From sequence record PZ452608.1: a DNA stretch of 64,000 nucleotides, one strand, 5' to 3'. Source of the DNA: a phage. The position numbers and the translations under genes are program-made. Shown here in pieces: positions 2,830 through 4,480 of this stretch (its first letter is position 1; each line of letters begins with the position of its first letter). The notes under the pieces were generated by a model, which was given only the letters and a program-made list of their open reading frames with translations, did no database searches and had not been told where the DNA came from.

Positions 2830-3085
2830 AAGGCTACTGCCATCCTTCCATACCAAACCAAACCTTACAAGACCCAACCACACATCACTGTACTCAACAG
2901 AACTCTACCCTACCTCATTAAAAGACCCTCTTAAAGACCTTTTAAAAAGGTAAGTCTCATTTTAATGTAGCTGAGACTAACTACCCATACCAGACCCTAC
3001 CTTACCAAACCAGACCTCACCCTACCCCACCATACCGTATACTACCTCATTAAAAGACCTTGTTTAAAGACCTTTTAATGAGGAG
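2830..3085. repeat. intergenic repeat copy 1: G-poor pyrimidine/A tract plus about 65-nt conserved core with hairpin
   Basis: Core AAAAGACCCTCT.AAAGACCTTTTAAAAAGGTAAGTCTCATTTTAATGTAGCTGAGACTAACTACCCATAC at 2921-2990 is near-identical to 4309-4384; flanking CCATACC-type tracts almost lack G. Confidence 0.55.
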
Positions 3086-3110
3086 CCTCCGAAGAGGCTA
3101 CCTAGTCAAC

Positions 3111-3551
3111 TTAGAAAGGTTTTCTGCGTTGCTTGTTAATGTTAGCTTTCATAGCAGCTAAATGGTTTTGCTGTTCAATTAGTCGTGAACGTTCTTGGTG
3201 GCTAAGTGCCATAGTATTCACATTCTCAATTGCTTGAGTGGCTTGCTTTAAAGCTCGACCAATCTTACCAGACATTTTGCGTTTTGCAATAGTTGCTTGA
3301 TGCTTAGGTTCAACCACACGATAACCAACACCCATTGAAGCAACCAGATAAATCTTCTCTTCTTTAAGAAGCTTCTCAATAAACTTCTCAAGTCGGTTTA
3401 GACGTGTAAGTGCATAAGCCTTCATTTCATCTTCGTACTTAACAATGTCACCTTGATAAGTTGGCTTCACAATACCTAAGAAGGTGTCCATCTCAGAATG
3501 TGATACAGTGTCACCGTAACTAAACTTTGCTGCTAATGCTTTTGTATTCAT
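3111..3551 (-). CDS. hypothetical protein
   Basis: 146-aa ORF flanked by the repeat copies. Confidence 0.4.
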   Translation of the reverse strand: MNTKALAAKFSYGDTVSHSEMDTFLGIVKPTYQGDIVKYEDEMKAYALTRLNRLEKFIEKLLKEEKIYLVASMGVGYRVVEPKHQATIAKRKMSGKIGRALKQATQAIENVNTMALSHQERSRLIEQQNHLAAMKANINKQRRKPF

Positions 3552-3553
3552 AA

Positions 3554-4156
3554 TTAAACGTTACCTTCTGAAATAACTTCTACAGAAAAACGACCAAAGC
3601 GTGGACGCCAATCACCTACACCACAAAGGTTACCAGCATTTTCCAGAACCATCAAGAGTTCTTCTTTGGTGATTTGCTCTTCATCGAACATCAAACCAAA
3701 CTCTACAGACCAGTCACGGAAGATTGGACGGTAGCTCATAACTCGTGCTGTACCAATCTTAACAGACTTAGCATAGATAAAGTCTGGATTCTTCGCAAGT
3801 TCTTGTGGGTTTGCTGGACAATTCTTGATAGTCATTGGGAAGACTACATCTGTCAGCATAATGGCTCGGTCAATTACCTTACCAAGTTTGTTTAGTTTTG
3901 CACCAGACTTGATACAAGCCTCAATCATCTCACCGTTCATAACAAAACCTAGTTGCTCATCGTAGTAACAAGAAGTTACCAGTTGGCTTTCTGCTAAGAG
4001 CGCATAGTCTTCGTCAGTCTTTTTACGCTTACTGGACAGAGACTTGTGATATTTTGTCAGAGGGTTTAATGGGTCTGACAGCGTATCGTTATGGCTCAGG
4101 AAAGGACGAGTACCAGTGATTTTGATATTTAACAGTTTCATAGCATTTAGCTCCAC
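3554..4156 (-). CDS. hypothetical protein
   Basis: 200-aa ORF; start may be the internal ATG (MKLLNIK) with GGAG upstream. Confidence 0.4.
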
Positions 4157-4239
4157 ACTTTAGTTGATTGTTAAGTTGTTTGTAAAGAACCCTCAACAGA
4201 AGACTCTTTAGAAACTTGGTAGATTTTTAACGTGGCTAC

Positions 4240-4480
4240 TACCATCCACCCATACCGTGCCACACCACACCGGACCGTACCATGCCCAACCCTACTACAC
4301 CAGACCTTATTAAAAGACCCTCTCCAAAGACCTTTTAAAAAGGTAAGTCTCATTTTAATGTAGCTGAGACTAACTACCCATACATTACCGCACCATATTA
4401 TACCCTACCCCACCATACTTCACTGCACCGAGCCACGCATTACATCACTTAAAAACCCTTTTCAAAGACTCTTAAGTGAT
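4240..4480. repeat. intergenic repeat copy 2 (same core as 2921-2990)
   Basis: Direct repeat of copy 1 including the AGTCTCA...TGAGACT hairpin; G-poor flanks. Confidence 0.55.

Follow-up and report, generated by a model that had tools for sequence, protein, structure and literature searches.

VIPR (Viral Interference Programmable Repeat) is a phage-borne system, resembling clustered regularly interspaced short palindromic repeats (CRISPR), that was described in 2026 (bioRxiv 10.64898/2026.04.26.720920, 10.64898/2026.04.26.720927). Its published layout comprises a vipr gene, encoding a minimal RAMP protein, and an accessory vap gene, with guide RNAs (vrRNAs) on both sides (10.64898/2026.04.26.720920,.720927). 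Published vrRNAs consist of 9–16 YNNGG repeats, in which GGY is conserved and NN is hypervariable, and end in an invariant 3′ tail, which in the SUSP1 clade folds into a pseudoknot (10.64898/2026.04.26.720920). Each repeat of a SUSP1 vrRNA takes up one Vipr protomer, with the GGY bases buried and the NN dinucleotides presented (10.64898/2026.04.26.720920,.720927). The NN dinucleotides pair with double-stranded DNA, with every third target base skipped, to give an R-loop triplex that silences transcription (10.64898/2026.04.26.720920,.720927). The SUSP1 clade accounts for 41 vrRNAs in the preprints, and a satellite phage of E. coli is targeted by 18 of the 20 guides with identifiable targets (10.64898/2026.04.26.720920,.720927), while vrRNA expression, co-purification with Vipr and target repression were demonstrated for SUSP1 and P. 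fulva (10.64898/2026.04.26.720920). Here we analyse a 64-kb stretch of phage DNA (sequence record PZ452608.1; hereafter the window), which derives from the Felixounavirus wV8, a Felix O1-like myovirus of Escherichia (100% identical to EU877232.1, in which each coordinate equals the window coordinate + 56485), and in which two copies of a repeat element bracket the genes for gp94 and gp95. The minus-strand locus at ~2816–4539 is almost certainly a type II VIPR system of the SUSP1 clade; both repeat elements are vrRNA arrays for Vipr, the product of one of the flanked genes, and the most likely purpose of the system in wV8 is the silencing of a satellite phage carried by the E. coli host.

VIPR as a system is already known, the proteins of wV8 hardly differ from those of the published model, and the novelty of the wV8 locus is therefore low. 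It shares with the type II system of SUSP1 a Vipr protein with 98% identity and every named contact residue kept, vrRNAs on both sides of the genes, GGY/NN pentamers with a hairpin/pseudoknot tail, and a predicted target class, recognised with a 1-nt skip, in the form of a chromosomal E. coli satellite with related tape-measure and baseplate genes; its vap1 is 99% identical to the copy in SUSP2, of the same clade. The two systems differ in host genus (Suspvirus for SUSP1, Felixounavirus for wV8), in guide sequences, with eroded GGY in two of the four wV8 guides, and in vrRNA layout, which is two upstream and two downstream of the genes in wV8 but one upstream and three downstream in SUSP1 (10.64898/2026.04.26.720920).

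Class 1 CRISPR-Cas systems (Cas7-type) resemble VIPR in that a RAMP-fold protein polymerises on the guide RNA, a thumb flips bases at a fixed period, a conserved structured handle caps the variable guide and foreign DNA is recognised by RNA guidance (10.64898/2026.04.26.720920,.720927). The wV8 locus has neither a repeat–spacer array nor cas1/cas2, its repeat being a 5-nt GGY-NN unit, and no cas genes were found nearby, the neighbours (DNA ligase, gp93 and an HTH regulator) having no cas-like Pfam matches. The VIPR guide is non-contiguous, with two of every five RNA bases pairing with two of every three DNA bases, whereas CRISPR guides pair in contiguous 5-nt segments with every sixth base flipped; VIPR is phage-encoded and silences, whereas the CRISPR-Cas systems compared here cleave. 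TRAP binds 11 (G/U)AG triplets spaced ~5 nt apart on single-stranded RNA, one subunit to each triplet, as an 11-mer ring. The wV8 arrays are like TRAP sites in their ~5-nt spacing, their roughly 11 repeats and the predicted single protein subunit per conserved triplet, and it was this analogy that led us to search for a partner protein; they are unlike them in the GGY triplet, a partner expected to form a helical RAMP filament, informative spacers, and DNA targeting in place of attenuation. In ToxIN, a system of phage-related conflict, identical 34–45-nt tandem ToxI RNA repeats lie beside toxN, whose product has an endoribonuclease fold. Tandem non-coding RNA units beside the gene of a ~20-kDa binding protein are common to ToxIN and wV8, but ToxI has no 5-nt periodicity or variable positions, whereas the wV8 units are ~135 nt long with hypervariable interiors, and the ToxN fold is unrelated to RAMP, gp95 having no Pfam match and only Vipr as a PDB sequence relative.

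Anatomy of the vrRNA arrays and the vipr–vap1 genes

A sequence-only reading of the window had described a two-gene block flanked by two copies of a G-poor, structured element with a near-identical core. This arrangement was borne out: the core is identical over 57 nt (2934–2990 and 4327–4383; none of 100 shuffles gave any match), is carried as repeat 'DR_4' in the wV8 GenBank record, and contains the hairpin AGTCTCA-N12-TGAGACT, which is present in both copies as had been reported (2953–2978 and 4346–4371). The two element copies show 83% column identity over a 300-nt alignment. Each consists of two tandem ~135-nt units, giving four tracts (2838–2912, 2979–3043, 4238–4302 and 4372–4441) of ACC-NN pentamers in strict register, which read NN-GGU on the minus strand. 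In-phase CC reached 10/10 in the tracts, compared with a maximum of 5 in 20 shuffles, and no further site in the 64-kb window gave an ACC-NN phase signal above threshold. The tracts are G-poor, as had been noticed, but are not merely so, as they are phased pentamers and their composition is a by-product of the GGY-NN repeat code.

Four vrRNAs can be delineated on the minus strand, two upstream of the genes (up1 and up2) and two downstream (dn1 and dn2). The first, up1 (4346–4436), comprises 12 NN-GGY repeats (4436→4377) and a 3′ tail hairpin/pseudoknot at 4346–4386, and has the guide code GT TC GC GA AT GG AG AT AT GC AA. Its neighbour up2 (4218–4308) also has 12 NN-GGY repeats (4308→4249), which are followed by a terminal tail at 4218–4248 (stem GGUAG/CUACC, pseudoknot GUGG/CCAC). 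Downstream of the genes, dn1 (2950–3048) has 13 NN-GGY repeats (3048→2984) and a tail hairpin/pseudoknot at 2953–2983, and dn2 (2816–2916) has 14 repeats (2916→2847) and a terminal tail at 2816–2846 (stem GGCAG/CUGCC, pseudoknot AAGG/CCUU). The GGY triplet is degenerate in 7 of the 14 dn2 repeats (six AGU or UGU, the last one GGA). The wV8 tracts hold 10–14 repeats, compared with 9–16 in the published vrRNAs.

The element was found in 227 phage records, at 1–5 places in each, and is 72–80% identical, compared with ~93% for the flanking genes. Ten loci were compared in detail (Felixounavirus wV8, bumzen, VpaE1, VSe11, REP7, Felix O1 and BPS17L1; Mooglevirus Mijalis and Sf19; Suspvirus SUSP2), across which the hairpins and anchors are near-invariant and the tracts vary fully in NN and in length, with the ACC phase kept. 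Among 449 repeats from the 36 vrRNAs of these 10 phages, the first G is retained in 84% and the second in 98%, the third position is a pyrimidine in 93%, and NN is variable. The tail hairpin stem occurs in four versions (AGUCUCA/UGAGACU, AAUCGGA/UYCGAUU, GGCAG/CUGCC and GGUAG/CUACC) around the same loop throughout, and the pseudoknot stem in three (GUAGU/GCUAC, AAGG/CCUU and GUGG/CCAC). Both tail stems show compensatory changes (e.g. AAGG/CCUU to GUGG/CCAC and GGCAG/CUGCC to GGUAG/CUACC) among few distinct variants, with one C-A mismatch across the relatives, in VSe11. Tail pairing leaves one non-canonical pair on the minus strand and five on the plus strand, G-U pairs being legal only on the former. 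Rfam covariance models gave no match at E ≤ 1 on either strand of 2000–5500.

Upstream of the arrays, a sigma-70-type promoter-like site (TTGACA-16-TATACT, 4512–4539, minus strand) matches the consensus at 11 of 12 positions and is kept in all ten related loci, Felix O1 included. Judged from its sequence and orientation, this site would drive minus-strand transcription into the upstream vrRNAs and vipr–vap1. The earlier suggestion that minus-strand transcription would yield a G/U-rich structured RNA is in keeping with both observations, the wobble pairs fitting the minus strand only and the promoter-like site pointing into the elements.

The vipr gene is wV8 gp95 (3554–4141, minus strand; 195 aa), which, by its identity to SUSP1 Vipr, is predicted to be a RAMP-family protein that polymerises on vrRNA. 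A PDB sequence search aligned gp95 over its full length with 36pp, 'SUSP1 Vipr protein' (191/195 identical, E = 6e-128), its sole PDB sequence relative. The start is the ATG at 4141, which gives 195 aa as in the solved protein, and not the upstream GTG at 4156 to which the gene had been extended in the earlier reading. The Vipr fold is a minimal RAMP with an RRM core, a G-loop and a thumb (10.64898/2026.04.26.720927), and the residues that read GGY (H17, D177, R138, W178, E71, M72, R179 and C173) and those that hold DNA (K33, R39, K82, G87 and K88) are found at the same positions in gp95. At residue 175, gp95 and the deposited SUSP1 chain (36pp) both have V, and the two proteins therefore do not differ there; the 'T175' given for the pyrimidine pocket in the text of one preprint (10.64898/2026.04.26.720927) is probably a numbering or typing slip.

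Directly downstream of vipr lies the gene for the VIPR accessory protein, vap1 (wV8 gp94; 3111–3551, minus strand; 146 aa), which is identical at 145 of 146 residues to its positional counterpart in SUSP2 and 100% identical to the VpaE1 and Mijalis copies. A DNA-binding fold is predicted for Vap1. No Pfam or PDB sequence match was found for gp94; none of gp93, gp94 and gp95 has a Pfam match, and PHROGs yielded nothing but families of unknown function. Two 'hypothetical proteins' (gp94 and gp95) and a repeat (DR_4) of an O157:H7 typing and biocontrol phage can now be read as an RNA-guided DNA-silencing system with four readable guides.

Array–protein pairs in other viral contigs

Since Rfam and Pfam gave nothing, IMG/VR was scanned for the pattern (ACCNN)7ACC, which, after removal of microsatellite-like matches, left 61 contigs with diverse NN, spanning 30–64% GC. 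Homologues of gp95 (22–39% identical, E-values of 1e-31 to 3e-4) lie no more than three open reading frames (ORFs) from the array in ~40 of the 61 loci, and the arrays and a gp95-type gene therefore constitute a conserved pair across unrelated phages. Distant gp94 homologues adjoin arrays in five unrelated viral contigs of the same set. This array–protein link was first obtained by the pattern scan, independently of the VIPR publication, and a plain DNA pattern, (ACCNN)n, retrieves VIPR loci from widely differing viral genomes. When ACC is placed on the plus strand, 32 loci have both flanking genes on the minus strand and 2 have both on the plus strand; because the flanking genes are antisense to ACC in this proportion, the transcript carries GGU-NN.

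Many of the 61 loci contain several arrays of ~10–12 pentamers with short fixed punctuation between them, up to ~20 arrays per locus. Five of them (L016:4602–5047, L119, L069, L111 and L120) have 7 to ~20 tandem tracts of 10–12 pentamers each, punctuated by CCCATTAGCCTT, TGCCAA or AACTGCC in place of the long hairpin tails, and in L120 the ~20 tracts are spread across 10 kb. In wV8, the anchors TAACTACCC and CTACTGCCA are similar to the AACTGCC or TGCCA punctuation.

Predicted targets in satellite phages

Satellites were located with the DNA of wV8 gp74, the hub gene beside the tape-measure gene, which was taken from the wV8 record and lies outside the window. A gp74-related 'phage baseplate protein' gene is chromosomal in 474 of 5,426 complete E. 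coli genomes, the best matches having 91–95% nucleotide identity to gp74 over the first 560–780 nt. The satellite element that carries it is ~13 kb long and has small ORFs as well as genes for a serine recombinase, a tape-measure protein and an HNH endonuclease or a Dam methylase; its insertion site in O157:H7 strain Rafaela_II (L132:4007–17383) is a DUF72 gene (yecE). The satellite tape-measure gene is 60–100% identical between strains and is often disrupted by insertion sequences (L133, L140 and L141).

All 36 guides were compared with ten satellite loci (232 kb with chromosomal flanks) at skips of 0–3 nt, with 30 shuffled guides as the control. At skip 1, 23 of the 36 guides scored above all 30 shuffles, whereas none did so at skips 0 and 2, and at skip 3 one guide exceeded the control by a single position (SUSP2_dn1, 15 vs 14 of 18). 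The best skip-1 matches were those of Mijalis_dn2 (26/26), Sf19_dn2 (20/20) and VpaE1_up1 (28/30). Most skip-1 matches lie in satellite genes, on either strand, with four in satellite intergenic DNA, and the skipped base is at codon position 3 in 15 of 19 coding matches. The published 1-nt-skip code is independently confirmed by these results, with different phages and genomes.

For wV8, the up1 guide matches the tape-measure gene of the O157:H7 satellite at 21 of 22 positions (L132:13759–13790; shuffled maximum 17), which is significant, and scores 20–21 of 22 at that site in three further satellite lineages. The predicted site is GTnTCnGCnGAnATnGGnAGnATnATnGCnAA, and the 121-nt region around it is present in 119 of the 5,426 genomes, being identical in 8. 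A concrete predicted target, the satellite tape-measure gene, is thus available in O157:H7 and in ~2% of complete E. coli genomes. The match of up2, also in a satellite tape-measure gene, is partial (18/22, with the first 8 dinucleotides perfect; L133:11810–11841), and that of dn2 in the recombinase gene is borderline (20/26, with 7 contiguous perfect dinucleotides; L132:16573–16610; shuffled maximum 19), its skipped base being in wobble phase. The best score of dn1 (18/24) was within the shuffled range, and no target was found for it in the ten satellites sampled.

Guides of different phages also share parts of their sequence. The guides of wV8 up2 (4249–4308) and SUSP2_up2 (L010) have in common a run of seven dinucleotides, AA CT GT AG TG AT AC, after which they diverge, and the same tape-measure site in L133 is matched by both; guide evolution seems to proceed through recombination or partial replacement inside the tracts. 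In addition, the satellite of strain Z1323CEC0005 has an intergenic ACC-NN tract of its own, with 8 repeats (L136:5042–5079), which fits the report that some satellites encode vrRNAs (10.64898/2026.04.26.720920,.720927). Homologues of vipr and vap1 are absent from all ten satellites, and satellite-borne guides would therefore depend on the Vipr of the helper phage.

Taken together with the published model, the locus would operate as follows. The early sigma-70 promoter (4539–4512) would transcribe up1 and up2, then vipr (gp95) and vap1 (gp94), then dn1 and dn2, each vrRNA having 10–14 NN-GGY pentamers and being capped at its 3′ end by the conserved hairpin/pseudoknot tail. Vipr protomers, one per repeat, would hide GGY and expose NN, which, with a 1-nt skip, would pair with double-stranded DNA to form an R-loop triplex that blocks transcription. 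By analogy with the systems of the preprints, the vrRNAs of wV8 would be expressed at a comparable size, enter a ribonucleoprotein and silence their targets. The wV8 guides appear to be directed at the ~13-kb satellite phage in E. coli chromosomes, including those of O157:H7, the host of wV8, and this satellite, whose tape-measure and baseplate genes are related to those of wV8, presumably parasitises the phage. The locus accordingly bears on phage–satellite conflict and on the performance of Felix O1-like therapeutic phages on satellite-carrying strains.

Alternative explanations, module exchange and further conserved elements

Several observations weigh against assigning the wV8 locus to a working VIPR system. 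A clearly significant predicted target was found for one of the four wV8 guides (up1), with up2 and dn2 matching in part. For dn1, none of the ten satellites gave a match better than control, and the window contains no self-target even when 3 mismatches are allowed; IMG/VR, scanned for the exact 1-nt-skip patterns of dn1 and up2, had no match to either. Degenerate repeats, most of them with AGU, UGU or AAU in place of GGU, occur in two wV8 vrRNAs, seven in dn2 and three in up1, and these two may work poorly because of them. A consensus scan of the locus found no intrinsic terminator, and neither wV8 nor any Felix O1-like phage is named in the main text of the two VIPR preprints.

Relatives of wV8 provide the evidence for one alternative, in which the elements are passive direct repeats that supply recombination homology only and delimit an exchangeable two-gene cassette. 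Relatives differ in whether they have the two-gene block: Felix O1 and BPS17L1 are without vipr and vap1 and have a single hybrid unit at the junction, with the left flank of wV8 copy 1 and the right flank of copy 2. Their 282-bp spacer consists of the wV8 left flank, one tract and the wV8 right end with the promoter, a composition expected after recombination between flanking units. The number of units per side of the genes varies from 1 to 3. Between wV8 and Suspvirus/Mooglevirus phages (window 3111–4141 compared with L010, L004 and L003, SUSP2 and Mijalis among them), vipr and vap1 are 98–100% identical in protein and 93–97% in DNA, whereas the neighbouring gp93 (2340–2723, minus strand) is 31–33% and the DNA ligase (4696–5832, minus strand) 87% identical. 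This difference between the module and gp93 points to recent horizontal exchange of vipr–vap1 between genera, and the module, on these sequence comparisons, appears to move between them.

The earlier proposal of a mobile or exchangeable module therefore holds for the genes, which are absent from Felix O1 and BPS17L1 and conserved across genera, but not for the elements as passive recombination repeats. Units lie on both sides of vipr–vap1 in all eight gene-carrying relatives, none of which has the repeat only once. Passive repeats would not hold GGY at 84–98% with NN free, would not give compensatory changes in the hairpin and pseudoknot, would not accompany gp95 homologues in unrelated phages of 30–64% GC and would not encode 1-nt-skip matches to a satellite phage. 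As a primary function, passive repetition is effectively refuted by the conservation pattern, and we consider it highly improbable; inter-unit recombination is better regarded as a result of this architecture than as its function.

The orphan unit of Felix O1 (L007:5633–5914) and BPS17L1 (L005:3400–3681), whose junction equals window ~2850 joined to ~4440, is promoter-driven and has a type-B hairpin (see below), a terminal tail and 10 repeats, of which 6 have kept GGY intact in Felix O1. Its guide has no match above control in the ten satellites. The unit could be a relic of inter-unit deletion, or a guide or decoy acting in trans; rather than being decaying relics, such orphan vrRNAs could act in trans, through Vipr supplied by a co-infecting phage, or as anti-VIPR decoys. 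The genome papers of Felix O1 and UAB_Phi87 list repeats, and this element is not among them.

Scarcely credible, in our judgement, is a cis-acting role, in which the elements would act as 5′ and 3′ untranslated regions controlling the translation, stability, processing or termination of the gp95–gp94 mRNA. The position of copy 2, between a strong promoter-like site and the gp95 start, and of copy 1, after the gp94 stop, would suit such control, as would the conserved type-A and type-B hairpins and the stem-loop at 3085–3100, which have no assigned role. However, in Felix O1 and BPS17L1 a promoter-driven unit persists where there are no flanked genes for it to control, the variable NN match foreign DNA and not the phage's own mRNA, and the equivalent regions of SUSP1 give discrete ~100-nt RNAs that co-purify with Vipr (10.64898/2026.04.26.720920). 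The paired regulatory RNAs envisaged in the sequence-only reading are instead guides for Vipr; processing or termination by the inter-vrRNA hairpins could occur and is compatible with the VIPR assignment.

The chance is practically nil that the phased triplets are a sponge or structural element without guiding function (a TRAP-like array, a Rho rut site on C-rich antisense RNA, a (GGN3)n G-quadruplex or R-loop origin, or a decoy of the tRNA 3′ ACC end or the anti-Shine-Dalgarno sequence), in spite of a TRAP-site-like 5-nt triplet period, a C-rich, G-poor and rut-like plus strand, the two-tier quadruplexes possible from GG every 5 nt, and a position among replication genes. Against it, the partner protein has been identified and solved and reads GGY directly (10.64898/2026.04.26.720927), gene orientation marks the GGU strand and not the C-rich strand as the transcript in 32 of 34 co-oriented loci, rut sites and G-quadruplexes need neither a conserved third-position pyrimidine nor information-bearing NN, and there is no Rfam match. 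Chi-like or RecBCD decoys, decoys of EcoP1I (AGACC) or bacteriophage exclusion (BREX; GGTAAG) sites, a boxA-like NusB/E site in the hairpin loops, and tRNA 3′ ACC-end or anti-Shine-Dalgarno sponges were all rejected on the same grounds, namely the freedom of NN, the third-position pyrimidine, the occurrence in phages of 30–64% GC and the reading of GGY by Vipr.

Beyond the vrRNAs, the VIPR locus of wV8 contains inter-vrRNA hairpins of two types, all on the minus strand. The type-B hairpin (CAUCACUUAA...UUAAGUGAUG; 4443–4481) is an inverted repeat 5′ of up1 and is kept in relatives. Type-A hairpins are found at 4304–4344 (13-nt arms, 92% complementary, with two GGUCUUU motifs; kept in relatives), at 2911–2952 (14-nt arms, 86% complementary) and, 5′ of dn1, at 3045–3083 (17-nt arms, 88% complementary, 5-nt loop), the last being the '12-bp palindrome' CCTCATTAAAAG...CTTTTAATGAGG that had rightly been seen to end copy 1. 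Both types are AT-rich, carry two direct GGUCUUU motifs each on the RNA strand and are near-invariant across three genera. Directly after the vap1 stop codon, a GC-rich stem-loop (AGCCUC-UUCG-GAGGCU; 3085–3100, minus strand) has a stem that is identical in all eight gene-carrying relatives, with one loop substitution in REP7 and no U-run after it. The main text of one VIPR preprint makes no mention of vrRNA processing, terminators or inter-vrRNA hairpins. The type-A and type-B hairpins and the post-vap1 stem-loop could be vrRNA processing or termination signals, or binding sites for Vap1; that the parts beyond the published model represent new biology, with the conserved hairpins as dedicated signals and the orphan vrRNAs working in trans or as decoys, is a prospect we regard as unlikely.

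Two further features of the window were observed. A 19-nt inverted repeat (2769–2787 and 2797–2815, 89% complementary) lies directly downstream of the last vrRNA tail and, over 2768–2815, encloses the −35 TTGACA of a promoter-like site of gp93; it may be a combined terminator and promoter. Far from the locus, about ten iteron-like copies of (C/T)TGTTAAG(A/G)A, spaced 10–11, 20 or 31 nt apart (46646–46913), sit in a C-poor, ORF-poor stretch (~46000–47560) and could represent a replication origin or a regulator-binding array.

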